A stretch of DNA of 64,000 nt from an uncultured Christensenellaceae bacterium. GTDB lineage: Bacteria > Bacillota > Clostridia > Christensenellales > CAG-1252. The DNA lies in contig CAZLNZ010000006.1 of assembly GCA_964561145.1 (NCBI GenBank), positions 1-64,000 of the forward strand, read 5' to 3'. Position numbers and translations under genes: made by a program. The notes under the pieces are model-generated. The model saw nothing but the letters and a program-made list of their open reading frames with translations, was not told the origin of the DNA and ran no database searches. This document shows positions 1-14,760 of this stretch, one piece after another; within the stretch, counting starts at the first letter, position 1, and every line of letters starts with the position of its first letter.

Positions 1-3000
1 AAATCAATCTGCGGATATCAAAGCTCACTTTGAAGATTATAAAGGCGAACAAGTTGAGATGGATATCTCTTACTCTGCTGAATTTATTAATGCTGGCTCT
101 TACACCTTGACCGCTAGGTACGGAAATACTAACTATATTTATAACGACAATGAAAATAATGTAACAATAGCACAAAAGACATTGACAATAAGTGCGGACA
201 ACAAGAGTATTTATTATGGTGATAGCGTTACATTCTCCTATAATACTATCGGATTAATTGAGGGTGATAAGATAGGAACTATCGGCTATACTTGTAGTTA
301 TAGCGTAGGCTCTGATATAGGAAGCTATTCAGTTACTCCTTATGGTGCAGAAAACTCCAACTATATTATAGGTTACACCGATGGAATGCTTACAGTCACT
401 GCAAAGGTTGTTCGAATTGTTTGGGAAAGTGATGACTCGTATGTATATAGCGGAGCTTCTCAACTTGAGAGCGTAAAAGCTTACTATTTGGCATATACAA
501 ATGATAAAGTGTACGGTTCCTTAAGCTTATCCGGAGATTTCTCCGAGTTTAAGAATGCAGGTTCTTATACCTTTACAGTAACCTTTGCAAGCGATGCAAA
601 CTATAACGTACAAGGAGGTACAACAAAGTCTATAAATATAGCTAAAGCAACCTACAGCGGAATTACCCATGCAGGCTTCAAGGGAACCTATGATCCCCAA
701 GCAACCCTGAACGGTAACTATAGCTTTGGAGAGAATTCTCCATATAACTGGGTTAGTGGTTCAACAAAACCTGTAGTAAATACTAAGGAATATGCTGCAA
801 TCTACAATGCCGATCCTGTCAATTACGAAAACTTCCCATTGAACGTAAAGGTGGATTTGGAAAAAGCGACTTATTCTGATAGTGAGATTCCTAGCATCTA
901 CACCACGGAATTTGAGCTTGGAACATATGATCCTACGAATACACTGAAAAAATTATCAACCGATGGAAAAGTCACGTTGGCTAGCGGTTACTATTGGGTT
1001 GACGATAGTTTAGTACCTTCTGTAAGTACTGATGGTAAGAGCTATTCTGCTTACTATAATGCCGACTCTTACAACTACCATAATAAGGATGTCTCTGTCA
1101 TCATTAAAGTTTTGAGTAAGCTACAATTAAAAGAAGCCGATATACCTAATACTAGTATCACGCAAGACTTCGATCCCGAGAAGAAGGTCTCAGACTACCT
1201 TAATGATCTTCCTAATTCAGGTGCCGGTTTCAGCTTTGCAAGTACCGTAACAGATGCACAAAAGAATACTATCCTCAATGCTCGTGAGGCAGCTCATACC
1301 TTCGCTGTAATCTATAATCCTGATTCAACTAACTATGATGATTACACAACAGAAATAAGTATAACCATCAATAAGGCAAGCAGGAATGCAGAAGATCTCA
1401 AGAAAACCATTGACGGCGGCATATATGTTAAAGGAAATACCCTTGCAAATTACACTCTGCCCGAAGGATACACTTGGACTACTCCCTCAACCCCTGCTTC
1501 TCGTGATAGTACAGATGACAATGTGTACCCTGTCTTTACAGCAATTTGGAATGCGGGCTCGGAAACCTATCCTAACTATAACGAGTGTACCGGTGTCGAA
1601 ATCACCCTTAAACTTACCAAGGCGATTGTAACACTGGATGAAAAGGTATATGTTGATTGTAAGAATACGGATATTAATAAGAATGATAACAAAGATGTAA
1701 CCGTTGTACCGGAAGCATATTACAACGGATCGAAACTAGACGATTCACTATATGAACTAAGTTATCATAATACGACTAACGTATTTTCTCAAGGTGGAAC
1801 ATATTCTATGACGGTTTCCTTAAAATCTGAAAACTTCATGTTGGCAACGGAAGCGGTTACTGTATTAGCAAAAGTAAGAAGTGTTGCACTAAAATCTGAT
1901 ATAGACACTCTCTTGGAAATTGAAGATGCTTTATCCTTAACCACCAGCGATACAATAATAGTTATGTACAATACCATACTTAATAATAGTGCAACAGTAA
2001 ATAGTGGTGTAACTTTATTAGTACCTTATGGCGACCCCTCCGACGAAAATTTCGATTATACGCTAGGTGCAACAACTACAACGTCCGCAGGTATAGGCTC
2101 TTCGTATGTAACCCTTACTATTGGCGATGGAAAGAGACTTGATGTAAATGGAACAATAAATGTTTCCGGTTTACAGTACGGTGCATCAACCCAATATACC
2201 GGCTATACAACAGGAAATTATGGACAAGTTTCAATGGAAGATGGTTCTATTATCTATGTAAACAAAGGTGCTAATATATATTCATTTGGTTATGTAGTAG
2301 GAAGCGGTGATGTTGTATTACTTGATGGAGCGAATGGATATGAGCCATTAGATATTAAAGATTGGCCTGGTGGAAAAGCTTCATACCAAGCAAGAAACAC
2401 GTATTTTCCATTTAGTCAATTCCGCATAGCCAACATAGAAGTTTCTTTACGTATTTCCTATGGTGCAGCACTAAATGCACAATATCATATTTATGCTGAT
2501 GATACCAGTTTTGTAAATAGCATACAATTTGTAGGTAGCAGTGGCTTATTTGCGATTACTTCAGATGGAAGTTATATTGAAAAAAAATTGGATACGGCAA
2601 CAGGAAAAATCGATTTAACTTTATCAGGTTATGTGCAAACAAATAATATGACTGTCTCAGTGAAAGTTAAAATTGGTGTTAGCATGAACGTTGAAATGAG
2701 TACCTCAGGGAAGGAGATTCCTATTTGTGGTTATTACAATATTGTTGTTGCTAAAGGTGAAGTAACTGCAAATTCCAAGTTTAAATTGATGCCAGGTTCT
2801 TCTTTTATCATAAAAAAGGGTGCAAAGGTCACGGTTGCTGCTGATAGCAAAGCAGGAGTAATTGCCTATAACGGAAGTTCTCATCCTGATGTTTTCACGG
2901 GATTAAATAGTGATGGTAAAGGCACACGCGTTTATGGCGGTGATTTGACAAAAAAGAATATAAGGTCTGGCATTGTAAATAGTGTTGTTTATACCGCAGC

Positions 3001-3316
3001 ACAGCCTGCTATTTTTAAAGTCAATGGAGAGCTAGAAATGCTAGGTTATTCCGAGACAACCACTAACTGGCTTGGGAAACAAGAGACCACTACATATGGT
3101 GGGGTGCTTGGTGGCAATATAACCACAGAGTATGACTCGTCAAGGATTATAATAAACAAGCATGCCAGCACATCGGGTTCTTATATAATTAGTGTAAAAG
3201 CTGGTTCCTTGTTATCCTTAGATGATAAAACCACTTATGAATTCGCCGCCACCTCAGGAAGCACCACCCTTACTGCCGGTACGACCTACACCGGCAATGG
3301 TTCGACATTTGAATAA
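1..3316 (+). CDS. Large secreted/surface repeat protein, 5' partial. The frame is open from window position 2, so the first ATG at 59 is not the true start. N-terminal repeated Ig-like modules of MBG type (e.g. YSVTPYGAENSNYIIGYTDGMLTVTAK); C-terminal Gly/Thr/Ser-rich region suggestive of a beta-helix.
   Basis: 3.2-kb uninterrupted ORF with no stop upstream of 59 in the same frame. Internal repeats of the T-x-YDG/YTY type are visible in the translation. Stop codon at 3314-3316. Confidence 0.8.
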   Translation, partial: NQSADIKAHFEDYKGEQVEMDISYSAEFINAGSYTLTARYGNTNYIYNDNENNVTIAQKTLTISADNKSIYYGDSVTFSYNTIGLIEGDKIGTIGYTCSYSVGSDIGSYSVTPYGAENSNYIIGYTDGMLTVTAKVVRIVWESDDSYVYSGASQLESVKAYYLAYTNDKVYGSLSLSGDFSEFKNAGSYTFTVTFASDANYNVQGGTTKSINIAKATYSGITHAGFKGTYDPQATLNGNYSFGENSPYNWVSGSTKPVVNTKEYAAIYNADPVNYENFPLNVKVDLEKATYSDSEIPSIYTTEFELGTYDPTNTLKKLSTDGKVTLASGYYWVDDSLVPSVSTDGKSYSAYYNADSYNYHNKDVSVIIKVLSKLQLKEADIPNTSITQDFDPEKKVSDYLNDLPNSGAGFSFASTVTDAQKNTILNAREAAHTFAVIYNPDSTNYDDYTTEISITINKASRNAEDLKKTIDGGIYVKGNTLANYTLPEGYTWTTPSTPASRDSTDDNVYPVFTAIWNAGSETYPNYNECTGVEITLKLTKAIVTLDEKVYVDCKNTDINKNDNKDVTVVPEAYYNGSKLDDSLYELSYHNTTNVFSQGGTYSMTVSLKSENFMLATEAVTVLAKVRSVALKSDIDTLLEIEDALSLTTSDTIIVMYNTILNNSATVNSGVTLLVPYGDPSDENFDYTLGATTTTSAGIGSSYVTLTIGDGKRLDVNGTINVSGLQYGASTQYTGYTTGNYGQVSMEDGSIIYVNKGANIYSFGYVVGSGDVVLLDGANGYEPLDIKDWPGGKASYQARNTYFPFSQFRIANIEVSLRISYGAALNAQYHIYADDTSFVNSIQFVGSSGLFAITSDGSYIEKKLDTATGKIDLTLSGYVQTNNMTVSVKVKIGVSMNVEMSTSGKEIPICGYYNIVVAKGEVTANSKFKLMPGSSFIIKKGAKVTVAADSKAGVIAYNGSSHPDVFTGLNSDGKGTRVYGGDLTKKNIRSGIVNSVVYTAAQPAIFKVNGELEMLGYSETTTNWLGKQETTTYGGVLGGNITTEYDSSRIIINKHASTSGSYIISVKAGSLLSLDDKTTYEFAATSGSTTLTAGTTYTGNGSTFE
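886..1391. repeat. ~506-bp core identical to 12326..12831 in inverted orientation. This is the candidate homologous-recombination substrate shared by the expressed gene and the silent cassette.
   Basis: 168/168 identical amino acids (IPSIYTTEF...INKASRNA). DNA matches at both ends and at every interior position spot-checked. Identity stops abruptly on both sides. Confidence 0.85.
2580..2587 (+). repeat. Poly-A tract (A8) inside the coding sequence of the surface-protein gene, encoding E-K-K.
   Basis: gaaaaaaaattgg read directly from the sequence. Confidence 0.6.
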
Positions 3317-3357
3317 TAAACATCATAACAAAAACTTATACCGTTGCTCGCACTTAA

Positions 3358-3397
3358 GAACAACAATTAACTACTTTGTGTAAATTTACACTTTACA
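3358..3397. repeat. 3'-flank homology box shared (inverted) with 10497..10537. Contains the palindrome GTGTAAATTTACAC.
   Basis: The reverse complement of 10497-10537 matches gaacaacaattaactacttTgtgtaaatttacactttaca with one or two mismatches. Confidence 0.75.
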
Positions 3398-3422
3398 CCC
3401 CCCCTTTGCAATATACAAAAAT

Positions 3423-3455
3423 GCCGTTTGATTTCCACAACAGAAATCAAACGGC
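3423..3455. other. 12-bp stem hairpin (gccgtttgattt / aaatcaaacggc). The T-run lies on the minus-strand side only.
   Basis: Perfect inverted repeat with a 9-nt loop. No U-tract on the plus strand, so it is not a canonical terminator for the upstream gene. Confidence 0.4.
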
Positions 3456-3609
3456 TGTGAAATAAAAATATGAACTTAAACAAGGTTATTTCGCAATCTT
3501 GCCATTTATCGAAATAGCAGCGGCAGATTTTGTGCCATAATTCAACCATATTCGCTCTAAAAATGTGCAAAACGTTATTTTATTCGCTCAAAAAAAGTGT
3601 CGTTTGCTA

Positions 3610-3636
3610 TTGACTTTAGTTTGAATGTGGTATAAT
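3610..3636 (+). promoter_or_regulatory. Promoter-like element TTGACT-N15-TGgTATAAT, carrying the conserved GAATGTGGTATAATA module.
   Basis: -35 at 3610-3615 and extended -10 TGgTATAAT at 3628-3636. The same module recurs in the type-1 repeats. Confidence 0.4.
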
Positions 3637-3721
3637 ATTTTCACAAAGTTTTCAAATGACATTTAGACATGATTGCATTTTCTACTAAAAAAATGAAAAA
3701 TACTGTAAAGTTTATATGTAA

Positions 3722-3757
3722 ATGTCATACTGAGCGAAAGGAATGTGGTGTAATAGA
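3722..3757 (+). repeat. Type-1 short repeat ATGTCATACTGAGCG(A/G)AAGGAATGTGGT(A/G)TAATA, copy 1. It contains an extended -10-like TGgT(A/G)TAAT.
   Basis: Five copies in the window: 3722, 6131 and 6413 on the plus strand, 8611 on the minus strand, plus the module alone at 3623. Confidence 0.8.
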
Positions 3758-3843
3758 ATACAAAATAATTCAAATGATGAAGTGACATTCAAAAAAATTA
3801 GATAGTAAAAAAAAATCAGATTATTACTAAAGAACTGTATAAA

Positions 3844-3930
3844 ATGTCATACTGAGCGGAAGAAATTGGTAACAATTTCAGCAGTCGAACCCCATAGGGG
3901 CGAGGTGCAACCTCGGTATCTCATCCGCAT
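3844..3930 (+). repeat. Type-2 structured repeat, copy A. Layout: ATGTCATACTGAGCGGAAG, a variable hairpin, GTCGAA, hairpin CCCCAT(A/C)GGGG, hairpin CGAGGTGCAACCTCG, then GTATCTCATCCGCAT.
   Basis: Five copies with conserved flanks and a variable central segment. Copy D carries compensatory substitutions in both conserved hairpins. Confidence 0.8.
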
Positions 3931-4030
3931 TATTCCTAGACAAGGATTCAAATCACCATTGCTTTTGATTGAGGAATCACTTTCTCATACTAATAATCAT
4001 TAAAGAATACAGCATTGCATGTTTTAGTAT

Positions 4031-4085
4031 CCCCTATTATACCCCTTGACAAAAGGGTATAATAGGGGTATAATGGGTATAACGA
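4031..4085 (+). promoter_or_regulatory. Perfect consensus sigma70 promoter (TTGACA 4046-4051, 17-nt spacer, TATAAT 4069-4074) embedded in a 14-bp-arm palindrome (cccctattataccc / gggtataatagggg). It is followed by a second GGGTATAAC copy and drives the ATPase gene at 4100.
   Basis: Read directly: ccccTTGACAaaagggtataataggggTATAATgggtataacg. An AAGGAG ribosome-binding site sits at 4087-4092 and the ATG at 4100. An inverted variant lies at 10336-10392. Confidence 0.7.
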
Positions 4086-4099
4086 AAAGGAGATGTAAT

Positions 4100-5911
4100 A
4101 TGGACACTATGAATATACAAAATCGAATTACAGAACTTGAAGCACGTATTGAAACTTTACCCAAAGGTTCTATAGCTAAAAAGAGTATAAACGGTAAAAC
4201 ATATTACTATCATCGATACAACGAAAGCGGAAAGAGAGTCGAAAAGTATATTGATCATGATTCAGTGGAAACTCTTCGTAATCAAATTGATGAGCGAAAG
4301 CTTTTGGAGGCAAGATTGAAGGAGTTGAAGAAAAAAATCGATGTACCACTGAGGAAAACGCAAAAGAAAGAAGTGTTTACCTTTAATTCATCGATTCTTA
4401 TAGGTGATAAACTGAAAAGATTTGTTGCCGAAGTGAAGGCTTATAAAAAGAGGGAATGTTTCTCACAGCTTCATAATTTTATATACAACGATGTCAAGGA
4501 TAGAGTATTTATTCTATATGGTTTGCGTCGTACCGGGAAAACTACAATGATTCGTCAGGCACTTGCCGATATGACCGAAAAGGAAATAGCTAAATCTGCA
4601 TTTATTCAAGTTTCACCTAAAGATACGCTCGGGGGTGTTAACAAAGATTTGATGCTTTTGGAACAAGGTGGCTATAAGTATATTTTCATTGACGAGGTCA
4701 CCTTTATGGCTGACTTCATCGAGGGTGCGGCACTTTTCTCTGATGTATTTGCTACATGTGGTATGAAAATCGTTCTTTCAGGAACCGACTCTCTGGGCTT
4801 TATGCTATCTAAAAGCGAGCAGCTCTATGATAGGTGTATTCTCCTTCATACAACCTTTATCCCCTACAGAGAGTTTGAAAAAGTACTCGGTATAAAAGGG
4901 ATAGACGAATTTATTCGCTATGGTGGCACCATGAGCCTTGGCGGTATCAATTACAATGAAGGTTTTTCATTCAGTAATACGAATACAGTAAACGCATATG
5001 TTGACAGTGCAATTGCAAAAAACATCCAACACTCCTTAAAGTATTATCAGGATGGCAGTCATTTTCGCAATCTAGCAGATCTTTACGAAAAAAACGAGCT
5101 AACCAATGCTATCAATCGTGTGGTAGAAGACATTAACCATCGCTTTACAAAAGAAGTAATTACTCGTGAGTTTAAATCAGGTGATTTGTCACGTTCGGCA
5201 AGAAATTTACGCAGAGATCGCTTTGCACCAAATACAATCCTTGACGATATCGATATTAAAGCCGTAACCGAAGAGCTCAAGAGTCTTCTTGAAATCCTTG
5301 ACGAAGAGGATCAAATGGTTAAGGTGGACGACATCCACGCTGCAGAGATTAAAGAATATCTTATTCTTCTTGATCTGATTTACGAAATTGACGTGCGAAG
5401 TTTCCCGAATGTGAATGACATCAAAAAGAACATAGTTGTATCACAGCCCGGAATGAGATATGCACAGGCAAAGGCACTTGTTGAAAGCTTACTCCTCGAT
5501 GAAAAAATTAATGGGCTGAGCTTGCATGAACGTATGCAAGTAATCGAGAGGCTTTTAAGCGAGATTAAGGGCAGAATGATGGAGGACATCGTCCTACTTG
5601 AAACCAAGTTAGCAAAGCCTCAAAAAGATGTCTTTAAACTTCAATTTGCCATTGGAGAGTTCGATATGGTAGTGTTTGATCCGGAAAAATTATCCTGTGA
5701 AATATTCGAGATAAAATATAGTACCCAGATAGTAGATCAACAATATCGACACCTTATTGATGAGCAGAAATGTGCACAAACCGAACACCGTTTCGGTACA
5801 ATTAAGAATAAATACGTTATCTACCGTGGATTAACCGAGATTGTTAACGGTATACATTATATAAATGTTGAAGAATACCTGAACAATTTGTGTAACGATA
5901 ATTCCCTATAA
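4100..5911 (+). CDS. AAA+ ATPase of the AAA_14/DUF4143 family (COG1373-like). It has an N-terminal ~100-aa extension with a coiled coil and a possible AP2/arm-type DNA-binding motif.
   Basis: Walker A motif GLRRTGKTT; DUF4143-like C-terminus (FEIKYSTQIVDQQYRHLIDEQ). The start is placed at 4100 rather than the ORF-track 4046 because the RBS and promoter lie within 4046-4099. Confidence 0.7.
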   Translation: MDTMNIQNRITELEARIETLPKGSIAKKSINGKTYYYHRYNESGKRVEKYIDHDSVETLRNQIDERKLLEARLKELKKKIDVPLRKTQKKEVFTFNSSILIGDKLKRFVAEVKAYKKRECFSQLHNFIYNDVKDRVFILYGLRRTGKTTMIRQALADMTEKEIAKSAFIQVSPKDTLGGVNKDLMLLEQGGYKYIFIDEVTFMADFIEGAALFSDVFATCGMKIVLSGTDSLGFMLSKSEQLYDRCILLHTTFIPYREFEKVLGIKGIDEFIRYGGTMSLGGINYNEGFSFSNTNTVNAYVDSAIAKNIQHSLKYYQDGSHFRNLADLYEKNELTNAINRVVEDINHRFTKEVITREFKSGDLSRSARNLRRDRFAPNTILDDIDIKAVTEELKSLLEILDEEDQMVKVDDIHAAEIKEYLILLDLIYEIDVRSFPNVNDIKKNIVVSQPGMRYAQAKALVESLLLDEKINGLSLHERMQVIERLLSEIKGRMMEDIVLLETKLAKPQKDVFKLQFAIGEFDMVVFDPEKLSCEIFEIKYSTQIVDQQYRHLIDEQKCAQTEHRFGTIKNKYVIYRGLTEIVNGIHYINVEEYLNNLCNDNSL

Positions 5912-5940
5912 CACGCATCTATAAAATCCATACATCGTAG

Positions 5941-5971
5941 GGCGGGGACTTGACTCCCGCCGAATCTTTTT
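5941..5971 (+). terminator. Rho-independent terminator after ATPase 1: GC stem gcggggA...Tcccgc followed by a T-run.
   Basis: ggcggggacttgactcccgccgaatcttttt. Confidence 0.55.
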
Positions 5972-6130
5972 ACACTACGGTGTTCCACACGCCTGCTATC
6001 CCTCAATCTCTAGGCTACGCCTTTCGACAGCCCCTTTTTCACAAGCAATGTGTTGGCTTAAGAAAACCTGTATAAACACAAGCAAAAGTGGTATTAAAAG
6101 GATATCGATTTACAGCAAAATCACATCTCA

Positions 6131-6165
6131 ATGTCATACTAAGCGGAAGGAATGTGGTATAATAA
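6131..6165 (+). repeat. Type-1 repeat, copy 2.
   Basis: atgtcatactaagcggaaggaatgtggtataataa. Confidence 0.8.
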
Positions 6166-6248
6166 ATTAAAAAAGTAAATGCCAAAGTACACTATAGAAT
6201 GCAAAAATCCTTCTAGAAAATCGAAAAGTATCGCAAAAGTATACATTA

Positions 6249-6410
6249 ATGTCATACTGAGCGGAAGGTGAAGCCTGGAGTCGAACCCCATCGGGGCGAG
6301 GTACAATCTCGGTATCTCATCCGCATTCACTCGCATTGCTTTACACAAGGCAGCCTTTTCCTATGGTGTGTTAATACAAAATTCTAAAATAATTGCCGGC
6401 AAATTATCTA
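6249..6410 (+). repeat. Type-2 repeat, copy B (6249-6326), plus a conserved 3' extension (tcactcgcattgctttacacaaggcagccttttcctatggtgtgttaatacaaaat..). The extension is shared with copy C.
   Basis: The extension at 6327-6400 is near-identical to 6621-6690. Confidence 0.8.
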
Positions 6411-6412
6411 AA

Positions 6413-6447
6413 ATGTCATACTGAGCTAAAGGAATGTGGTACAATAA
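6413..6447 (+). repeat. Type-1 repeat, copy 3.
   Basis: atgtcatactgagctaaaggaatgtggtacaataa. Confidence 0.75.
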
Positions 6448-6542
6448 TTTCAAAAAGAACTAAAATCACAAAAAACATGCAGAGAAATTGAAACGCTATA
6501 ATATAGTGCGAATATTGGCAATAATACCAGTAATCCATATAA

Positions 6543-6700
6543 ATGTCATACTGAGCGGAAAGCGAAGCTTGTAGTCGAACCCCATCGGGACGAGGTGCAA
6601 CCTCGGTATCTCATCCGCATTCACTCGCATTGCTTTACACAAGGCAGCCTTTTCCTATGGTGTATTAATGCAAAATCTTAAAATAATTATCAGTAAATTG
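6543..6700 (+). repeat. Type-2 repeat, copy C (6543-6620), plus the shared 3' extension. Together with 8449-8527 (minus strand) it forms a perfect ~80-bp inverted repeat with an identical variable segment (AGCGAAGCTTGTA).
   Basis: The reverse complement of 8449-8527 aligns base-for-base with 6543-6620 apart from about two mismatches. Confidence 0.85.
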
Positions 6701-6706
6701 TTTAAG

Positions 6707-6790
6707 ATGTCATACTGAGCGAAGGCGTAGCCGTAGTCGAACTCCGCAGGAGCGACACTCGGTGTCGGTATCTCATCCTTGTTAATCGGC
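6707..6790 (+). repeat. Type-2 repeat, copy D, divergent. Hairpin 2 changes from cccc-atc-gggg to ctcc-gca-ggag. Hairpin 3 changes from cgagg-tgcaa-cctcg to cgaca-ctcgg-tgtcg. Both changes are compensatory.
   Basis: Base pairing is preserved while the primary sequence changes on both strands of each stem. Confidence 0.75.
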
Positions 6791-6910
6791 ATCTCAATCC
6801 TTATAAAAAGGTCGCAGTGACATAAAAATGTACTGTATCATAAATTTAAATCCAAAATTAAGCCCTCCCTATGTTACTCTTGCAAAAATGTTTTGCTGTT
6901 TTACACAACA

Positions 6911-6993
6911 ATATTGAAAAGTCAACAAAATTAACCTTAAAAACTATTGAAAAGTCAATGAATATGTGTTAAAATAATATTGAAAAGTCAATG
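6911..6993 (+). repeat. Three direct repeats of (A)TATTGAAAAGTCAA(T/C), starting near 6911, 6944 and 6975, immediately upstream of and overlapping the start region of ATPase 2.
   Basis: Spacing of ~33 bp, which is about three helical turns. Confidence 0.7.
6947..6975 (+). promoter_or_regulatory. Promoter TTGAAA-N17-TGtTAAAAT for ATPase 2, overlapping the middle direct repeat.
   Basis: -35 at 6947-6952; extended -10 at 6967-6975; GGAGG at 6994-6998; ATG at 7003. Confidence 0.5.
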
Positions 6994-7002
6994 GAGGTGT
7001 CT

Positions 7003-8319
7003 ATGCTTTACAGAAAAATTGAAAAAGTTATTACTTCTCATCTAAAATCCGGCACTAACAAAATATTAATTGTAGATGGTGCAAGACAGGTTGGTAAGTC
7101 TTATATAATTAGATATATTGGAAAAAAGCTTTTTAAAAACTATGTTGAGATAAATCTCTTAGAGGATTCTTTAGGTAGGAAAGCCTTTGAAAATGTTAGA
7201 ACTGTTAAAGACTTTTACTTTCGTGTAAGTATGTTCGCAGGCAATAATATGGGTTCTAAGGAAGATACCATCATTTTTCTCGATGAAATACAAGTATACC
7301 CCCATTTGCTCACATTACTAAAATTTTTAAGGGAAGATGACAAGTATAACTATATCGCAAGCGGGTCTTTATTGGGCGTTACTCTTGCAAAAACCTCATC
7401 TATTCCTATGGGTAGTATTTCCGTGGTTCAAATGTACCCTTTGGATTTCGAAGAGTTTTTATATGCCAATGGCTTTAATGAATTTGCAATTACCTCAATG
7501 AAAGAGCATTTTCAAAATATGCAAAGCCTTGAACCGACTGTACATGACTCTATACTTGATTTGTTTAAGAAATATCTGTTAATTGGCGGACTGCCCGATG
7601 CCGTTAACACCTATTTAACCGGTTTTAATATAGTCGCTGTAAGGGAAATTCAAAAAGAAATCCACGAGTTTTATAGTGCTGATGCCTCTAAATACGATAC
7701 GGAAAACAAATTAAAAATACGTCGTATTTATGATATGATACCATCGACTTTGGAGAACAAAAAAAAGAGAGTGGTAATTAAGGATATCGAAAATATAAAA
7801 GGAAAAACCTATTCTCACTATCAGGATGAGTTTGACTATTTGATTTACTCGGGAATTGCATTAGACGTAAAAGCAATCTCAACGCCCACTTTTCCGTTAA
7901 TAGAGTCAAGCGAAAAAAACTTGCTTAAGCTTTATCTTAACGATGTCGGAATACTTACAAGCATTCTTTATAATAATAACATTCTTGCGGTTCTGGATAA
8001 CGAAAAGAGTGTTAATCTTGGCACGGTTTATGAAAGCGTTGTTGCAAGCGAATTGAAGGCACATGGTAAGAGTTTGTTTTATTATGACAATCGCAGTAAC
8101 GGAGAGGTGGATTTTTTAATAGATGATTACGATAATCTATCGGCACTGCCAATTGAGGTAAAGTCAGGCAAGGACTATACGATTCACAGCGCCCTAAATA
8201 GATTTGTAACCAATAGTGATTATAATGTAAAAAAAGGGTATGTTTTATCAAATGAAAGGGAAGTATTTACTAACGGAAAAATAACATATCTTCCTATTTA
8301 CTATGTAATGTTCCTTTAA
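7003..8319 (+). CDS. AAA+ ATPase of the AAA_14/DUF4143 family, paralogous to the gene at 4100..5911.
   Basis: Walker A motif GARQVGKSY; C-terminal DUF4143 motif (PIEVKSGKDYTIHSALNRF). The start is placed at 7003 (GGAGG RBS) rather than the ORF-track 6991. Confidence 0.7.
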   Translation: MLYRKIEKVITSHLKSGTNKILIVDGARQVGKSYIIRYIGKKLFKNYVEINLLEDSLGRKAFENVRTVKDFYFRVSMFAGNNMGSKEDTIIFLDEIQVYPHLLTLLKFLREDDKYNYIASGSLLGVTLAKTSSIPMGSISVVQMYPLDFEEFLYANGFNEFAITSMKEHFQNMQSLEPTVHDSILDLFKKYLLIGGLPDAVNTYLTGFNIVAVREIQKEIHEFYSADASKYDTENKLKIRRIYDMIPSTLENKKKRVVIKDIENIKGKTYSHYQDEFDYLIYSGIALDVKAISTPTFPLIESSEKNLLKLYLNDVGILTSILYNNNILAVLDNEKSVNLGTVYESVVASELKAHGKSLFYYDNRSNGEVDFLIDDYDNLSALPIEVKSGKDYTIHSALNRFVTNSDYNVKKGYVLSNEREVFTNGKITYLPIYYVMFL

Positions 8320-8448
8320 CTAAAATCCAACTTTATCTTCTCATTTTCAACCGAACGAATGAAATCCTCATAAATTTAGCAGCCAATTTCTTGAAGCGAG
8401 GCAAAATCCTAAAGAATGGCTCGAGTGCCGTAAAGAAAATTGCCTTTT

Positions 8449-8527
8449 ATGCGGATGAGATACCGAGGTTGCACCTCGCCCCGATGGGGTTCGACTACAA
8501 GCTTCGCTTTCCGCTCAGTATGACTTA
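8449..8527 (-). repeat. Type-2 repeat, copy E, in inverted orientation. It is the right-hand partner of copy C flanking ATPase 2.
   Basis: See the 6543 entry. Confidence 0.85.
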
Positions 8528-8610
8528 ATGTATAACTTTGTTATATTATCGATTTTTTAGAAGTATTCCTGTATTTTAGAGTGCTATTTTATCATTTACT
8601 TTTTCAATAT

Positions 8611-8644
8611 TATTATACCACATTCTTCCGCTCAGTATGACATT
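8611..8644 (-). repeat. Type-1 repeat, copy 4, in inverted orientation.
   Basis: The reverse complement reads atgtcatactgagcggaagaatgtggtataata. Confidence 0.75.
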
Positions 8645-8821
8645 TAGACAGTATTTTGCTTTATAGTTAAAATCTTATATCACTATTATTACTCGCACCT
8701 ATACATGTTTTCTTTATCCCTTGCATTGCATCTCACGACTGATGCCCTTGTCTTCGGCTAACAGTTCCTACTGCCAGCCTGTAGCGGACTTTCACCGCCA
8801 AGTTATTACGCGTGCCGAGTA

Positions 8822-8869
8822 CACAAGAAAAACCGCCGTTGGTTTTACTCAAAAGCGGTCAAATTTTAT
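8822..8869 (-). terminator. Rho-independent terminator for the minus-strand AlbA_2 gene.
   Basis: On the minus strand: accgcttttgagtaaaaccaacggcggt followed by tttttcttg. Confidence 0.5.
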
Positions 8870-8876
8870 ATGTTTA

Positions 8877-10211
8877 TTATTCTTGTATCTTCCAATGTCC
8901 ACCTTTAGCTGGGCCGACATGAATTATCACTTGACTTTTCTTTAATGCCCTACTAATAGTTGGCACAGATTTTCCTGTTTTCTCTGACATTTTAGCCTTT
9001 GAGATGTATGGGTTTTCTTTAATAAGATTGATTAGCATTTTTTCTGTATCATTTTCTGTATCATTTTCTGTATCACTTTTCCCAAGTAAACGTTCTTGTT
9101 TGCTTCTGTTTAATATGTTATAGGGCAGAATACATTGTATAAATGACGAGCCAAAATGATAGGCATCTTTACCATATTTCGACACTATAGTAGGCACACC
9201 TTTTCCTGATTGTTCCATATAGTGTAATTGCATGAAAATTTTTGCAAATTCTTCATTGACAGGTTTACTGATTCCATTAAAGAATTCTTCTTTTGTCATC
9301 CCTTCAGTTAAAAGTCCGTATGAGATAATTTCTAATCTATCATCAAAACCATATATTGCCGGAGGTGTTTGTTCTACCCATAAATTATGACATACTGCAT
9401 TAAACCAAGCCTCACGGAAGGACTCATTATCAAAATACGGCGTATCGACTCTATTCTTTCCAATAATATTTGTTTGAATTATATTGAGCACATTTAATGC
9501 ATAATCCAATGCATCTTCCATTTGCTTAAAAATACATCCTCTTTCAAATTCTTTTCGTGATAAAAATTCTGCTTTGGTTGTGCCATTAAACCGAACTACT
9601 TTTATTGATGTATCATTCTGATCTGATACCAGAAATGCGATATAGTTATATTTGCCTTCATTATTTCTCAAATTATAGTTTTGTTCAAACGTTGCACCAT
9701 TAAAATGTATACCTTTAAATGCAAGTATCGCTTGAAATTGAGCAAACGATAAATCTTGACGAGGGCTTAATTTTTGTTTCATTGATTGCTTAGGAATGGA
9801 CAGTTGTGCAATATATCTTTGTTCGATTTCCTCTTCAGTCATACTACGGCAGGTCGTACCAATACGGACATAACAGCCACTTGCACTACGACCATATTTC
9901 TTTATATAGAAAAGGCCATCACCCTTGCGGACCTTTATTTCAACAACATTTTTGCCTTCAACAAACTTTGTGCCGAGCTCAATATATTTTTGTGAATTCG
10001 GTAAAATTTGCGTAGTAATTATATCTGCGATTTTCTTTTGCGTTTCATCAAGATTGTTAATACCAACAACACTTCCGTCATCTTCCACGCCGATGTAAAT
10101 AACACCGTCAAAGCTATTAAGAAATGCCACGATTTCTTTTGAAAGAGAGTCGTTCATTATTCTTTTTAATTCTACCTTTTCGGTTTCTTGGAATATCATA
10201 AAAGCACCCAC
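8877..10211 (-). CDS. Schlafen-like AlbA_2 (divergent AAA_4) domain protein. It has a RecG-C-terminal-like ATPase-fold region and a C-terminal HTH, and is typically annotated as a putative DNA-binding protein or transcriptional regulator.
   Basis: N-terminal motif ELKRIMNDSLSKEIVAFLNSFDGVIYIGVEDDGSVVGI; C-terminal HTH-like region VPTISRALKKSQVI. Confidence 0.65.
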   Translation of the reverse strand: MGAFMIFQETEKVELKRIMNDSLSKEIVAFLNSFDGVIYIGVEDDGSVVGINNLDETQKKIADIITTQILPNSQKYIELGTKFVEGKNVVEIKVRKGDGLFYIKKYGRSASGCYVRIGTTCRSMTEEEIEQRYIAQLSIPKQSMKQKLSPRQDLSFAQFQAILAFKGIHFNGATFEQNYNLRNNEGKYNYIAFLVSDQNDTSIKVVRFNGTTKAEFLSRKEFERGCIFKQMEDALDYALNVLNIIQTNIIGKNRVDTPYFDNESFREAWFNAVCHNLWVEQTPPAIYGFDDRLEIISYGLLTEGMTKEEFFNGISKPVNEEFAKIFMQLHYMEQSGKGVPTIVSKYGKDAYHFGSSFIQCILPYNILNRSKQERLLGKSDTENDTENDTEKMLINLIKENPYISKAKMSEKTGKSVPTISRALKKSQVIIHVGPAKGGHWKIQE

Positions 10212-10335
10212 TTCACTTTAAGTTATTTTAATTATAACAAAAAAAATGGAAAAATTCAACACTTACCCGATAACAATTGACTATTTTTCCTTGAATCTAT
10301 TCACTAATGATTGTATTAATCTTTTGCGATGTTTT

Positions 10336-10392
10336 TGCTATACCCCTATTATACCCATTATACCCCTTTGTCAAGGGGTATAATGGGTATAA
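10336..10392 (-). promoter_or_regulatory. Inverted variant of the palindrome-embedded promoter element. A 13-bp-arm palindrome (cccattatacccc / ggggtataatggg) carries TTGACA in its loop on the minus strand, followed by TATAAT at a 15-nt spacing and further GGGTATAAT copies. It points toward the AlbA_2 gene.
   Basis: Minus strand reads ccccTTGACAaaggggtataatgggTATAATagggg. Same building blocks as 4031-4085. Confidence 0.6.
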
Positions 10393-10469
10393 TCAATGAG
10401 GTAACCAACTGCGGACGTTTTTTTGCTATGGGGTTTGTTTATGGTGAGGTAAAGTTTATTACAGAAAAT

Positions 10470-10497
10470 AGCGAGACTTTTGTCGGTCTCGCTATCC
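10470..10497. other. 10-bp perfect hairpin (atagcgagac / gtctcgctat) adjacent to the flank homology box.
   Basis: Perfect inverted repeat read directly from the sequence. Confidence 0.4.
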
Positions 10498-10537
10498 TGT
10501 AAAGTGTAAATTTACACGAAGTAGTTAATTGTTGTTC
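10497..10537. repeat. Inverted copy of the 3'-flank homology box at 3358..3397.
   Basis: See the 3358 entry. Confidence 0.75.
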
Positions 10538-10548
10538 ACAGAGTCAAA

Positions 10549-12831
10549 GACAAATGTGGTTCCGTTACCTTTATAGTTACTACCTTTGGCTAAAGTTGTA
10601 CTTCCGGAAGTGGCGGTGTAGGTATGGTTGGTGTCTGTTTCTGAAAAGGATATTCCACTGCTCAACAATTTTGCCATTTACCGTGGTATTGACATGGATT
10701 TTAATATATGGACCCTTTTTAGTTGTTATAGTACCACCTAAAACTCCTTTTCTTTCGGTTTTAAGGGTATCATCAACAATAAAATTAACGGACTTTTTAG
10801 CATAACCACCATCATATGTAGCATATGTACCCGTAATTGGTGTTGGTTGAGCAAAATCATCACCCGTTTTAAGTGCTATATACTATTCCAGCATATTCGC
10901 TATTTGCAATAGTCACTGCAGCACCCTCTTCAATGGTTAGAGATGCACCAGACATAATCTTTAGTTTCGAATTAACGGTTACATTTCCTTCAGCAACAAT
11001 AATATTATAATATTCACAAATTGGGATTTCAACACCTTTAGACGTGACCGTATAAATACTTATTTTTAGTGTTATATTATTTGTTGTAATATTTCCGTGA
11101 GATTCAATTTTGATTTTCCCATTATTATCAACACTCTTAATAATGTAACCATCTTCGATTGTAAATAATCCACCAGCTCCCATAAAAGTAACAGAATCAT
11201 TCGCCTCAAACCCGGTTCCTGTAATATAGTAATGTGCATATAAGGAAGCTCCGCTATTAATGCTTAAAACTGTTTCTATATTTGCTACACGGAATTGGCT
11301 AAATGGGAATGATTTAAATGTTTTTGGACCAACTAAATTCCATACATCATTAACAAGTTTTAGGGCGGCGGTACCGCCGGGCCAGTCTTCAATATCAAGA
11401 AGTTCATATACTTCCGCACCGGCATATGCAATTACAGTACCAGTTCCTTTTATATAGCCAAATGAATATAATTCACCATGAACATATATATAAGAATTAG
11501 TTTCCATGCTTATTTGCCCATAATCCCCGGAGGTATATCCGGAATGGGGTTGTCCAGAAGATTGTATGCCGGAAACATTTAATATCCCAGATTTGGATAC
11601 TGTTAATGATTTATCGTTGGCAATTGTGAGAGTTCTATGTGCTGAACCTGTTGAAACACCATTCTTAGCAGTGTTTATAGTGCTTATATAGGAGTAATTA
11701 TTGCTATATGGCACTAACAAAGTTACACCACTCTTTACTGTTGCACTATTATTAAGTATGGTATTGTACATAACGACTATTGTACCGCTAGTTGTTGAAG
11801 ATAAGGCGTCCTCGATTTCTAAAAGGGTTTTAGTGTCGGTACTTAATGCAACACTTCTAACCTTGACAGTAACAGTAACCGCTTCCGTTGCCAACATGAA
11901 GTTGTCAGATTTTAAGGAAACCGTCATAGAATATGTTCCACCTTGAGAGAAGAGGTTCGTAGTATTGCCATAACTCAAGGTATAAGATGAGGTATCTTCA
12001 ATAACTGAACCGTTGTAATAAACATTAGGAATAGCCTTAATCTGATCGCCGGTATAATCAACGTAAACAAGAGAATCAATCGTTACAACCGCCTTGGAAA
12101 TCTTAAGAGTTATCTCAACACCGGTACACTCGTTATAGTTACTATCATATTCAGAACCCTTATTCCAAATTGCTGTAAAGACAGGGTACTCGTCGTCCTT
12201 TATACTAGTACGAGAAGCAGTAAGAGAGGAGTCTGTCCAAGTGTATCCTTCGGGCAGAGTGTAATTTGCAAGGGTATTGCCGCGAACATATTCGCCTGCG
12301 TTCTCAATGGTGTACTTAAGGTCGCCTGCATTCCTGCTTGCCTTATTGATGGTTATACTTATTTCTGTTGTGTAATCATCATAGTTAGTTGAATCAGGAT
12401 TATAGATTACAGCGAAGGTATGAGCTGCCTCACGAGCATTGAGGATAGTATTCTTTTGTGCATCTGTTACGGTACTTGCAAAGCTGAAACCGGCACCTGA
12501 ATTAGGAAGATCATTAAGGTAGTCTGAGACCTTCTTCTCGGGATCGAAGTCTTGCGTGATACTAGTATTAGGTATATCGGCTTCTTTTAATTGTAGCTTA
12601 CTCAAAACTTTAATGATGACAGAGACATCCTTATTATGGTAGTTGTAAGAGTCGGCATTATAGTAAGCAGAATAGCTCTTACCATCAGTACTTACAGAAG
12701 GTACTAAACTATCGTCAACCCAATAGTAACCGCTAGCCAACGTGACTTTTCCATCGGTTGATAATTTTTTCAGTGTATTCGTAGGATCATATGTTCCAAG
12801 CTCAAATTCCGTGGTGTAGATGCTAGGAATC
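10549..12831 (-). pseudogene. Silent, 5'-truncated and 3'-frameshifted inverted paralog (cassette) of the surface-protein gene. Homology to 886..3357 of the expressed gene.
   Basis: No ATG: the ORF track begins at an internal TTG (12740), and an in-frame TAG lies eight codons upstream of where the homology starts. It is identical to the expressed gene over 12326-12831 and divergent (~65% aa) thereafter. After the TAA at 10869-10871, homology to the last ~150 aa of the expressed gene (GVLGG-ITT.., ATSGSTTL.., YKGNGTTF) continues in other reading frames down to 10549. Confidence 0.75.
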
Positions 12832-13041
12832 TTAGCATAATCTTTCTAGAACCACCTTTATGTTCGATATTTTCGTAAGGCGGAGGCAAGGCTTACACTG
12901 CTATATTATGCAATATTTGTACGCAAAGAAGTTGTAATGTGGATATTTATTTGACGGGACGGCATCAAAGATGCCTGCAATCCTTCAGTCAATTCGCTAT
13001 GCTCCTTGATAGTGCCTTTTATATCGGGCAGCTTTGTTTTA

Positions 13042-13065
13042 GGATGAGATGCCGATATCTCATCC
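13042..13065. repeat. Perfect palindrome GGATGAGAT-gccgat-ATCTCATCC. It shares the GGATGAGATA/TCTCATCC motif with the 3' ends of the type-2 repeats.
   Basis: Read directly; also resembles the 3' tail of copy D. Confidence 0.5.
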
Positions 13066-13215
13066 TCATTGTTACATTAACATAGAACAACTATAGGTCA
13101 TACTATAACATCGGTTTCTTTTCCTTATGAAAAGCCGTTATTCTATACAATGATTACTGTAACCTGTGTAGTTTGGGTTGGCGGTTTGGTTATCATAGGT
13201 TGATTAAAAAAAGAA

Positions 13216-14519: not shown

Positions 14520-14760
14520 GTCTGATACCTCCTTCGTTTTATATTAATATTATATCAGTCTTTTTCGACTTTTAGTAGTACGCAGTTATTAATAAAAAAG
14601 TGCCCCCTTGTTTTTGCACCAAATGTGGCTTTGTTATAAGAAAAAATGATATAAATCGTGTCTTTACGTTTTATTGAATGGGGAATCTGTGTTTTTTAAT
14701 AAGGATATCACTTTACTTACGCCCCCTTTTTGTGGTACATTATATTCATAGGAGGTGGTT

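Follow-up and report, generated by a model that had tools for sequence, protein, structure and literature searches.

The inverted repeats that bracket an ATPase gene in the defence-gene island of an uncultured Christensenellaceae bacterium are, with a probability of roughly 60%, a by-product of repeat-driven shuffling rather than the ends of a moving unit, the arms being copies of a hairpin repeat and the ATPase an independent cassette. In other words, the inverted repeat does not appear to define a mobile element with cargo, which is a deflating outcome for the initial annotation of this locus. The arrangement of the island differs between sister strains at short hairpin repeats, as would fit a shuffling of defence cassettes driven by repeats. 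The repeat family behind the arms is widespread, is absent from Rfam and covaries very cleanly. Throughout the text, the window denotes the whole stretch of 64,000 nucleotides that was analysed.

Anatomy of the inverted pair

The arms belong to an element of about 80 nt, here called type-2, which has five copies (A-E) within 5 kb, located in the spacers of the defence-gene island (Table 1). A covariance model of the element finds no copies in the 64 kb other than these five. Copies C and E form an inverted repeat with arms at 6545-6620 (plus strand) and 8449-8524 (minus strand), which are 76 nt long, match at 75 of 76 bases (99% complementary) and are separated by 1828 nt; both heads point outward. 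This inverted repeat is genuine and lies far outside what chance would produce. For the 15-nt head ATGTCATACTGAGCG there are nine occurrences at up to three mismatches against 1.08 expected, all of them within 3722-8643.

The initial annotation had described the pair as perfect inverted repeats, nested inside inverted type-1 copies at 6413 and 8644 and bracketing the ATPase gene with its upstream repeats. The pair exists, but it is imperfect: besides the sole core mismatch (GGGACG in C versus GGGGCG in E), the arms diverge at the first head bases (AATGTC versus TAAGTC) and directly 3' of TCCGCAT, so that the full type-2 modules agree at 76 of 79 positions. The sameness of C and E in the otherwise variable central segment was described correctly, AGCGAAGCTTGTA being identical in both arms. 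The two type-1 copies are also there, but they are weak partners, with 67% identity overall and only about 46 nt reaching 85%; the type-1 module of E is nearest to that of B at 6131 (82%). As to the bracketed content, the three upstream repeats at 6907-6991 are confirmed, whereas a third type-2 copy inside the C-E bracket, the directly oriented copy D, had gone unmentioned.

Table 1. Features around the bracketed ATPase gene, in window coordinates
Feature	Position	Strand	Remark
Outermost inverted repeat, left arm	885..1413	+	529 nt long; complementarity of 99% with 12304-12832
Promoter-like box (TTGACT-17-TAATAT with TGTGGTATAAT), head-less, type-1-like	3610..3640	+	
Short inverted fragment of pre-head/head sequence, after the head-less box	~3654-3690		
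Type-1 module copy A: truncated head GTCATACTGAGCG, then weaker promoter-like box TGTGGTGTAAT	3722..3843	+	
Type-2 hairpin element copy A, upstream of ATPase1 palindromic promoter	3844..3931	+	z = -4.2
ATPase1 palindromic promoter/operator (CCCCTATTATACCCC TTGACA ... TATAAT AGGGG)	4031..4088	+	12/12 promoter match
ATPase1, AAA_14 ATPase	4046..5911	+	PDC-S01 matches weak
Unit B: ~80-nt pre-head, type-1 (6131-6248, TGTGGTATAAT at 6153), type-2 (6249-6327)	6048..6327	+	
Tail of B	6328..6412	+	87% identity to tail of C (6622-6706)
Unit C, left arm: type-1 (6413-6542, TGTGGTACAAT), type-2 (6543-6621)	6413..6621	+	
Type-2 copy D, divergent	6707..6785	+	70-73% identity to other copies
PDC-S01 ATPase cassette	6883..8327	+	Iterons 6907-6991; CDS 7003-8319 (AAA_14 + DUF4143)
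Type-2 copy E, right arm	8448..8526	-	75/76 versus C, 92% versus B
E type-1 module (TGTGGTATAAT at 8612-8622) and ~80-nt pre-head homologous to 6048-6130	8527..8726	-	
Group II intron 5' fragment (~95-100 nt)	8732..8826	-	Directly after AlbA_2 terminator hairpin
SLFN_AlbA_2 + HATPase_c_4 + HTH protein gene	8877..10211	-	Promoter palindrome 10332-10387
Outermost inverted repeat, right arm	12304..12832	-	

Nested symmetry and mosaicism

The C/E pair is the innermost layer of a nested inverted symmetry that reaches 885-12832. Inverted repeats centred on the ATPase measure 529 nt (99%), 40 nt (98%), 56 nt (82%) and 274 nt (80%). The left arm of the outermost one sits within a full-length MBG-domain surface-protein gene (59-3316) and the right arm is located at the 5' end of a paralogous gene for a surface protein (10869-12740) that is truncated on its 5' side. 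The palindromic promoter of ATPase1, a gene whose true start is likely the ATG at 4101, recurs inverted at 10332-10387, upstream of the AlbA_2 gene. Alignment of 3316-4100 with 10300-10640 in the large symmetry arms, as filled versus empty site, gave no clean boundaries.

Units B and E are inverted partners over their full length, with homology extending over 274 nt (6052-6326 versus 8722-8449), and the identity between the tails of B and C marks a 294-bp tandem duplication from B to C. Copy E has a mosaic make-up: in the type-1 module it shares 82% identity with B and 67% with C, and in the type-2 element 96-99% with C and 90-92% with B. Since the promoter half thus resembles B and the hairpin half C, this identity pattern among just five copies suggests gene conversion as the origin of the mosaic.

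At its outer edge, E adjoins a truncated group II intron, and this edge is a junction. Homology to the intron stops at 8732 and unit E begins at 8722-8726. The intron fragment is 79-82% identical to Enterococcus and Staphylococcus plasmid sequences, and its E. faecium counterpart lies about 340 nt upstream of ltrA, directly after a terminator. Both the 5'-end homology and the post-terminator position are those of group II introns inserted after terminators, but a reverse transcriptase ORF and domains V/VI were not found. Given the end of homology at 8732 and the lack of any Intron_gpII match in the window, we regard the fragment as a truncated remnant.

The hairpin element

Four of the five type-2 copies are preceded by a type-1 module, in which no more than the opening ~19 nt of the motif are joined to a TGTGGTATAAT promoter-like box of the extended -10 type. 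Exact matches to TRTGnTATAAT number three in the window, all of them in type-1 modules or in the head-less box at 3610-3640. Taken singly, type-2 copies lack terminal inverted repeats. The window version has A and T at the complementary positions N and N' of the family motif given below, and 26 extra bases that form two hairpins between TCGAA and GTATC; hairpin a of copy A reads GAAATTG-GTAA-CAATTTC. Four pairs in hairpins b and c are changed on both sides, and copy D carries compensatory changes in both of them. Across the window copies 96% of the cells are paired, compared with 36-52% when the partners are slid. RNAalifold of the window copies arrives at the same four-way junction, and for copies A, C and E this junction is also the fold of minimum energy.

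By querying protein collections with spurious ORFs that span the repeat, we found two more copies. One of them (P0243), located elsewhere and known as protein only, necessarily has C-G in place of a G-C pair of hairpin c. In the other (P0123), a spurious ORF on another contig, the order and spacing of type-1 and type-2 recur. Exact-pattern scans for the window-type element returned four matches in the genome collection, all of them chance hits in GC-rich coding sequence, one chance match in the metagenome collection and none in viral contigs. Rfam gave no match at gathering score for the whole window and nothing relevant at E values up to 10 for 3400-9000; a tRNA/tmRNA scan found none. A hammerhead core was considered by eye for the CUGAGCG/GUCGAAC boxes and rejected, G8 and A9 being absent.

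A widespread repeat family

The type-2 element is a lineage-specific variant of a widespread hairpin-repeat family with the motif GTCAT-N-CTGAGCG-[RAG-hairpin-GNAG]-TCGAAG-N'-ATC. A BLAST search of the repeat regions against plasmids and phages yielded nothing beyond a Hymenobacter plasmid carrying GTCATGCTGAGCGAAGGCGTAGCCGCAGTCGAAGCATCTC, which is 94% identical to the 5' half of D. The family is common in Hymenobacter plasmids and is present in about a hundred viral or metagenomic contigs. In viral contigs the general motif occurs in 101 stretches, against about one estimated by chance. Among its 152 matches in the loci analysed, N and N' are complementary in 148. The variable inserts fold better than shuffled ones (-5.1 versus -2.6 kcal/mol), and of 93 unique sequences 73 have the better fold on the plus strand, where G-U pairs number 44 versus 19. 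Head-out doublets with spacers of 15-48 nt predominate. The initial annotation was right in treating the arms as members of a miniature repeat family, members elsewhere typically forming head-out inverted doublets with the topology of C/E.

Rfam returned no match for five loci with 32 copies of the family. No description of the family was found, and a literature search with sequence strings retrieved primers only. In the viral-contig loci, 276 unique ORFs lie no further than 700 nt from a family copy; one of these ORFs has an HUH-like motif, and it has no Pfam match. A single-copy transposase gene elsewhere in a genome would escape such a neighbourhood search. Such repeats may accompany small GIY-YIG genes; a crude regular-expression test did not bear this link out in the viral-contig loci.

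The ATPase cassette and its relatives

The enclosed ATPase, in which Pfam recognises AAA_14 and DUF4143, matches the PADLOC model PDLC04792 of PDC-S01 along its entire length (residues 1-438, E = 3.2e-175). PDC-S01 is a PADLOC phage-defence candidate in which an AAA+ ATPase is fused to a PD-(D/E)XK domain (COG1373/DUF4143), and the likeness concerns the enclosed gene, not the repeats. The PDC-S01 family is very common and without experimental validation (PMC12988326). Upstream of the coding sequence, the iteron TTGAAAAGTCAA is repeated three times with 33-nt spacing. The same iterons are present in four other genomic contexts, next to ATPase homologues of 72-80% identity, so that the exact 33-nt period is kept in five contexts; at none of the four homologue loci was the hairpin repeat found. 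The ATPase is an independent PDC-S01 cassette, spanning 6883-8327. For the ATPase gene, the iterons most likely serve as operator sites and as a repeated -35 box. No mention of an upstream iteron array with a 33-nt period was found for PDC-S01 in the literature examined, and the TTGAAAAGTCAA array offers a testable handle on the regulation of PDC-S01 or on the DNA that it binds.

The comparison of strains covers one related strain, the sister strain L131 from a sister sample. It shares 6883-8327 only, at 93.6% identity. Upstream of the cassette it has a D-like copy at the same position as D, and downstream an A-like type-2 copy, which is direct and not inverted; the contig ends inside this downstream repeat. 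The initial annotation had proposed to look in related strains for the presence or absence of 6413-8644 as a whole. When this was done, the idea of an all-or-nothing unit failed, as L131 shares the inner cassette and copy D only. The single other assembly of the source strain (L001) lies wholly between the arms. Exact-protein look-up with the window ATPase and RtcB retrieved only short contigs of the same strain, and with the AlbA_2 protein no record. In relatives identified through RtcB (75-85% identity), the contigs end or diverge before the island and carry no repeat copies.

Origin of the bracket

The claim of a composite MITE-flanked cargo unit fares poorly against these data. According to it, the inverted type-2 copies, together with type-1, are the ends of a composite or foldback element that carries the ATPase and its iterons. 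It is easy to see the appeal of this idea: C and E are head-out and differ at one base in 76, the wider family makes head-out doublets, so that a doublet with the exact C-E topology that gained an inserted gene is conceivable, and defence genes often travel on mobile elements. Nevertheless, we consider a composite unit very improbable, and the sister strain largely refutes it, sharing only the inner cassette with the upstream copy and having its downstream copy in direct orientation. The homologous cassette occurs in four other contexts without the repeats. In the wider family, no more than 100 nt separate the members of 47 of 50 head-out neighbour pairs, so that spacers large enough for cargo are atypical. 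The supposed unit contains a direct third copy (D), its inverted symmetry runs far outside 6413-8644, with the outer edge of E being the intron junction, and no second copy of it turned up in any collection searched. We found no transposase or recombinase domain among ORFs of at least 150 aa in the 64 kb. A target-site duplication was not seen either: no direct repeat adjoins the type-2 or type-1 heads, and the flanking similarity is inverted and part of the longer B/E homology. However, repeats that move as single-stranded DNA, for example REP elements and the IS200/IS605 family, do not duplicate their target site, and the lack of a duplication is therefore weak evidence. Another way to read the arms is as an invertible switch, in which recombination between them, either homologous or by an invertase encoded elsewhere, would flip the ATPase relative to the promoter-like boxes and alter its expression. 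Homologous inversion could work on a near-perfect 76-bp inverted repeat whose arms are 1.8 kb apart, promoter-like boxes face inward from both sides, and the larger enclosing structure with its 529-bp, 99% inverted repeat looks built for inversion. Yet the layout is nearly symmetrical: an inverted gene would again have inward promoters upstream and downstream and would keep its own iteron promoter, so that the expected change in expression is small. Together with the missing recombinase domain and with an L001 assembly that is silent on orientation, this makes a switch improbable.

Two further possibilities concern the repeat itself. Type-1 and type-2 together might encode a small structured RNA, or might be a 5' leader: an extended -10 promoter would give rise to a four-way-junction RNA of about 80 nt that accompanies the neighbouring defence genes or regulates them, and the inverted pair would amount to two such genes. 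This is possible, if doubtful. It is in line with the restriction of the TGTGGTATAAT box to these modules in the window, with the minimum-energy junction of A, C and E and its compensatory changes, with G-U pairs on the plus strand in B and D, with the plus-strand bias of the wider family and with the recurrence of the type-1/type-2 arrangement in the contig of P0123. On the other side, Rfam has no match, the element has no terminator after it and is missing from the loci of close ATPase homologues, E faces a gene's 3' end, D has a broken closing helix and the fold z-scores of B, C and D are unremarkable. Moreover, the covariation of the hairpins is equally expected if the repeat is recognised as single-stranded DNA. 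It is tempting to go further and to speculate that the hairpin repeat represents an unrecognised class of functional nucleic-acid element: either a structured, conceivably catalytic RNA whose internal loop is conserved, or a new repeat moved as single-stranded DNA by an enzyme yet to be recognised. The window version would in that case be a transcribed derivative with two extra hairpins and a promoter-like box. We regard this as an unlikely, tentative proposal.

Repeat-driven shuffling accommodates the bracket differently. Type-2 copies would have been multiplied and rearranged locally by segmental events. One of these would be the 294-bp tandem duplication from B to C. Another may have been a large nested inverted duplication, by which B and E came to hold equivalent positions, each about 140-150 nt past a defence-gene stop codon. 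The hairpin module of E would then have reached near identity with C through copying or through gene conversion, which we infer from the mosaic. Likely consequences of such an arrangement are further recombination between copies, possibly inverting the 1.8-kb segment, and antisense transcription from the putative promoter-like box of E into the 3' end of the ATPase gene.

Relation to known systems

Several known systems resemble parts of this locus. An invertible switch likewise has inverted repeats that flank a gene or promoter, but no invertase or recombinase accompanies them among window ORFs of at least 150 aa. With MITEs and composite transposons the elements share their small size, non-coding nature and multiple copies, as well as inverted copies flanking a gene. 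Unlike them, a single type-2 copy has no terminal inverted repeats, target-site duplication and transposase are missing, and the flanked segment is not kept as a unit in the nearest relative. Putative mobile promoters have reportedly been described in bacteria, and the Correia elements of Neisseria are promoter-bearing repeats. The near-identical promoter-like TGTGGTATAAT region is similar to both in being repeated, within a repeat unit, upstream of or alongside unrelated genes. It differs in that all copies in the window lie in one 5-kb region and in that the predicted promoter-like part is joined to a truncated hairpin repeat.

The REP, BIME and REPIN elements of proteobacteria are short palindromic repeats mobilised by RAYT tyrosine transposases. 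In contrast to REP/REPIN, the window copies are single, the only inverted pair being 1828 nt apart, and they have two extra hairpins and a link to a promoter-like module. The head is (T)GTCAT-N-CTGAGCG and not GTAG; a GNAG box is present just before TCGAAG, that is, in another position. We know of no REP/REPIN counterpart of the conserved internal loop (CUGAGCG/GUCGAAG), and an HUH/Y1 transposase was not seen in the window or near the 101 loci with the family. Nonetheless, the likeness to REP/REPIN extends to several properties: a short imperfect palindrome whose hairpin is kept by compensatory change (N/N' in 148 of 152), a conserved 5' head, many intergenic copies without target-site duplication and, in the wider family, head-out inverted doublets with a short spacer.

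The inverted pair and its modules

The inverted pair formed by the type-2 copies C and E does exist, with its arms spaced 1828 nt apart and sharing an identical central 'variable' segment, AGCGAAGCTTGTA. In this respect the initial annotation was essentially right, as it was about the iteron-like repeats upstream of the ATPase gene, of which there are three, spaced at 33 nt. However, the pair it described as perfect is near-perfect (76/79 over the whole module): the core has a single mismatch, GGGACG in C and GGGGCG in E, and the copies also differ at the first bases of the head and directly after TCCGCAT. The inverted type-1 pair 6413/8644, within which C and E were said to be nested, is present but weak, with 67% identity overall, and the type-1 module of E is instead B-like. 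The bracket 6413-8644 also contains the type-2 copy D in direct orientation.

Both modules carry a common 15-nt head, ATGTCATACTGAGCG, which occurs nine times at up to three mismatches compared with 1.08 expected, and all nine occurrences lie within 3722-8643. Sensitive self-comparison showed that the repeated unit is larger than these two types. The alignment of units B and E begins about 80 nt ahead of the type-1 head, and B and C represent a 294-bp tandem duplication consisting of type-1, type-2 and an 85-nt tail, the tails being 87% identical. Copy D is type-2 only and is located after the tail of C. Every type-2 copy ends abruptly at its 3' edge (…TCCGCAT), past which A, B/C, D and E are unrelated. 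Copy E is a mosaic, its type-1 module being closer to B and its type-2 module closer to C, a pattern expected if neighbouring copies exchanged sequence by gene conversion or were copied module by module. The same process would account for the agreement of C and E extending into the variable segment.

The exact TRTGnTATAAT motif, the Firmicute-type extended -10 consensus, has only three matches in the 64 kb, all of them in these modules; its versions in type-1 modules of A and C are one base off consensus each. By this consensus, the type-1 box is a putative promoter. Type-1 and type-2 recur in this order and at this spacing in another contig, where they were detected through the spurious ORF P0123. 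Separately, the spacer adjoining RtcB contains a 9-bp hairpin with perfect pairing, GGATGAGAT-GCCGAT-ATCTCATCC, whose ATCTCATCC(T) box is also present at the 3' end of the type-2 copies; boxes of similar sequence (ATCTCAATCC) occur after copy D and twice in the sister strain.

Features of the repeat region and of related loci (window coordinates unless a locus is named)
Feature	Position	Size, identity	Description
Outermost layer	885-1413 / 12304-12832	529 nt, 99%	paralogous MBG-domain surface-protein genes, full length / 5'-truncated
Second layer	1413-2032 / 11703-12301	78-83%	same MBG-domain gene pair
Third layer	3358-3397 / 10498-10537	40 nt, 98%	sequence after each surface-protein gene; contains its own palindrome TGTAAATTTACA
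Fourth layer	4033-4088 / 10332-10387	56 nt, 82%	palindromic promoter/operator of ATPase1 (AAA_14) and AlbA_2 gene
Fifth layer	B unit 6052-6326 / E unit 8722-8449	274 nt, ~80%	repeat units
Innermost layer	C 6545-6620 (+) / E 8449-8524 (-)	76 nt, 99%	complementary type-2 modules
Units B and E, self-comparison	6048-6327 / 8726-8448 (reversed)	~274 nt, 80%	
Type-1 modules	3722+, 6131+, 6413+, 8643-		head, then GAATGTGGTATAATA, then ~90 AT-rich bases
Type-2 modules	A 3844+, B 6249+, C 6543+, D 6707+, E 8526-		head, then GC-richer body of ~65 nt
Copy E, type-1 module		B 82%, C 67%	identity to B and C
Copy E, type-2 module		B 90-92%, C 96-99%	identity to B and C
Extended -10, exact	3626, 6153, 8612-		
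Extended -10, one base off	A 3741, C 6432		
Full-length MBG gene	59-3316 (+)		
Truncated MBG paralogue	10869-12740 (-)		without promoter
Palindromic promoter copies	4031-4088, 10332-10387		TTGACA-17-TATAAT within CCCCTATTATACCCC...GGGTATAATAGGGG
Group II intron remnant	8732-8826 (-)	~95-100 nt	first part of intron
AlbA_2 tandem repeats	9040-9079	three of 12 nt	TTTTCTGTATCA
ATPase CDS	7003-8319		AAA_14 + DUF4143
TTGAAAAGTCAA array	window 6907-6991; L007 4841-4985; L013 4876-4955; L020, L026 upstream of 3001		
Match to sister strain L131	6883-8327	93.6%	the only DNA match
RtcB	13320-14519 (-)		
340-aa protein	14755-15777 (+)		weak WYL-domain match, E = 0.0012
9-bp hairpin	13040-13068		
Hymenobacter repeat	L029 1420-1660		Hymenobacter volaticus plasmid

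A variant of a widespread hairpin family

A BLAST search against plasmids matched the 5' half of D, at 94% identity, to an intergenic repeat of Hymenobacter, TGTCATGCTGAGCGAAGGCGTAGCCGCAGTCGAAGCATCTC, several copies of which occur there in both orientations. The generalised motif, GTCAT-N-CTGAGCG-N(3-33)-TCGAAG-N-ATC, matched 101 stretches in viral contigs (about one estimated by chance) and 152 sites in the loci analysed, a single locus having as many as 13 (within 14 kb). In 148 of these 152 copies one N is the complement of the other (C-G 97, T-A 45, G-C 6), and therefore the helix AT-N-C(T) / (A)G-N'-AT is well supported. The variable insert, bounded by RAG and GNAG, folds better than shuffled sequence (-5.1 vs -2.6 kcal/mol). 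The family form on the Hymenobacter plasmid and in the IMG/VR viral contigs (L029, L030-L130) is (T)GTCAT-N-CTGAGCG-[RAG hairpin GNAG]-TCGAAG-N'-ATC, with a highly conserved internal loop. Without the 26 nt CCCCATCGGGGCGAGGTGCAACCTCG that make up hairpins b and c, the window copy reads GTCAT-A-CTGAGCG-GAA[AGCGAAGCT]TGTAG-TCGAAG-T-ATC, a sequence that agrees with the family consensus at N=A and N'=T. This makes type-2 a family variant carrying an insertion of two hairpins. Type-1 heads, in which the motif breaks off after its first ~19 nt, are truncated family copies fused to other sequence. Of the 93 unique family sequences, 73 fold better as the plus strand (G-U pairs 44 vs 19), a bias that fits the action of a single strand of one polarity, be it RNA or single-stranded DNA.

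The wider family is absent from Rfam, and we found no published description of it in the literature. The window variant was not found in 185,579 species-representative genomes, the four matches there being due to chance, nor in JGI metagenomes or viral contigs. A covariance model of type-2 detected only the five copies in the window and none in related loci, and protein collections yielded only two further window-type copies, both as spurious ORFs (P0123 and P0243).

The five window copies fold as a four-way junction, in which the closing helix GCGGA/TCCGC surrounds hairpins a, b and c. Copies A, C and E have it as their minimum-energy fold, B nearly so, and RNAalifold returns it as the consensus. 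Hairpin a differs in sequence between A, B, C/E and D and is a hairpin in each. Hairpins b and c include four pairs with both sides changed, all in copy D, and paired cells amount to 96% vs 36-52% with partners slid. In P0243 (AEEIPTLCVAPMGFDYRLRLSLSMT), R-to-T (ACN) and L-to-V (GTN) changes imply a G-C to C-G swap at one hairpin c pair. Since the family helix (ATAC/GTAT) and the window closing helix are mutually exclusive as nested pairs, the four-way junction is a predicted rather than a settled fold of the window variant.

The enclosed ATPase gene and the sister strain

The ATPase is a full-length match to the PADLOC candidate PDC-S01 (E = 3e-175), which is among the commonest predicted defences and represents an ATPase fused to a PD-(D/E)XK domain, without experimental validation (PMC12988326). 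Its homologues (72-80% identity) occur in four unrelated contexts (L007, L013, L020 and L026), in each of which TTGAAAAGTCAA recurs two to five times at an exact spacing of 33 nt; no hairpin repeat of either the window or the general form was found in these four loci. The enclosed gene is an independent cassette. The array of TTGAAAAGTCAA, a TTGA-N4-TCAA half-palindrome, is thus found in five independent genomic contexts, the window included, and in most of them the last copy adjoins the ribosome-binding site. In several copies TTGAAA has a TATAAT-like hexamer 17 nt downstream, so that the repeats resemble reiterated -35 boxes or operators. The array therefore looks like the gene's own putative operator/promoter array, and it is possibly a binding site of the ATPase itself.

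In the variant strain L131 from the sister sample SRR10277276, the sequence upstream of the matching DNA contains a diverged copy of the 3' end of D together with the sequence next to it, and D is therefore orthologous. Downstream there follow unrelated sequence, a remnant of a type-2 3' end, a promoter-like box and, at the contig end, a type-2 copy in direct orientation that is closest to A (79.5% over 78 nt). What the two strains have in common is limited to the inner cassette and the left-hand repeat, the right-hand inverted arm being particular to the window strain. By comparison with this one relative, 6413-8644 is not a fixed segment, nor is it one that is present or missing as a whole. 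For RtcB, identity is 75-85% to the closest homologues and ~62% to those that come next, indicating an isolated Clostridia-like lineage as the source and thus limited comparative power. RtcB itself is back to back with a 340-aa protein that has a weak WYL-domain match and may be a regulator paired with the ligase; the pair (13320-15777) is syntenic in relatives L015-L017.

Nested symmetry of the neighbourhood

Inverted symmetry around the ATPase is nested in several layers, of which the C/E pair is the innermost; B and E occupy equivalent positions in it, each beginning ~140-150 nt past the stop codon of a defence-type gene. In the outer layers, the 529-nt repeat is followed by a further ~870 nt at 78-83% (885-2032 / 11703-12832). 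The first ~140 residues of the truncated MBG paralogue are identical to the full-length protein (64% overall at the protein level). This pair looks like a set-up for a C-terminal swap of the surface protein via inversion or gene conversion, in which case the whole defence island would be a passenger. The consensus promoters of the fourth layer lie inside a near-perfect palindrome, and its copies are inverted upstream of two unrelated defence-type genes, AAA_14 ATPase and Schlafen/AlbA_2. Within the latter gene are tandem repeats that translate into a recurring DTEN motif close to the C-terminal HTH domain.

The AlbA_2 terminator hairpin is immediately followed by the start of a group II intron, which shares ~80% identity with introns carried by Enterococcus, Staphylococcus, Pseudomonas and other plasmids; in the Enterococcus and Staphylococcus plasmids the matching introns lie ~340 nt upstream of ltrA. 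Neither a reverse-transcriptase ORF nor domains V/VI remain in the remnant. The intron homology ends 6-10 nt short of the start of unit E, the outer edge of which is a rearrangement junction.

Origin of the arrangement

The segment 6413-8644 had been interpreted as a composite MITE-flanked mobile unit with the ATPase as cargo. The arms are indeed miniature repeats, but the rest of this interpretation did not hold, the segment not being shared as a block with L131. No target-site duplication abuts the heads, which is weak evidence because elements moving as single-stranded DNA leave none. Terminal inverted repeats are lacking from individual type-2 copies, the window ORFs of at least 150 aa yielded no transposase or recombinase domain, and a search around family copies elsewhere revealed no ORF of HUH type. 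Inversion of the segment, an alternative raised on account of the inverted arms, is conceivable but unsupported. The same applies to the type-1 + type-2 unit as a promoter plus structured RNA. The promoter-like box in A, B and C is directed at the following type-2 copy and then the ATPase gene, that in E is directed into the 3' end of the ATPase gene, and no intrinsic terminator was found after type-2.

The best-supported account is a different one. The hairpin repeat, in a variant specific to this lineage of a widespread REP/REPIN-like family, was probably multiplied and shuffled locally in a defence-gene island, gene conversion would then have partly homogenised the copies, and the C/E pair now brackets the independent PDC-S01 cassette by happenstance. 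In the wider family, 47 of 50 head-out inverted neighbours are at most 100 nt apart, mostly 15-41 nt; tail-out pairs are this close in 5 of 35 cases and tandem pairs in 10 of 61. In this habit of forming head-out doublets, usually 15-48 nt apart, the family is similar to REPIN/BIME.
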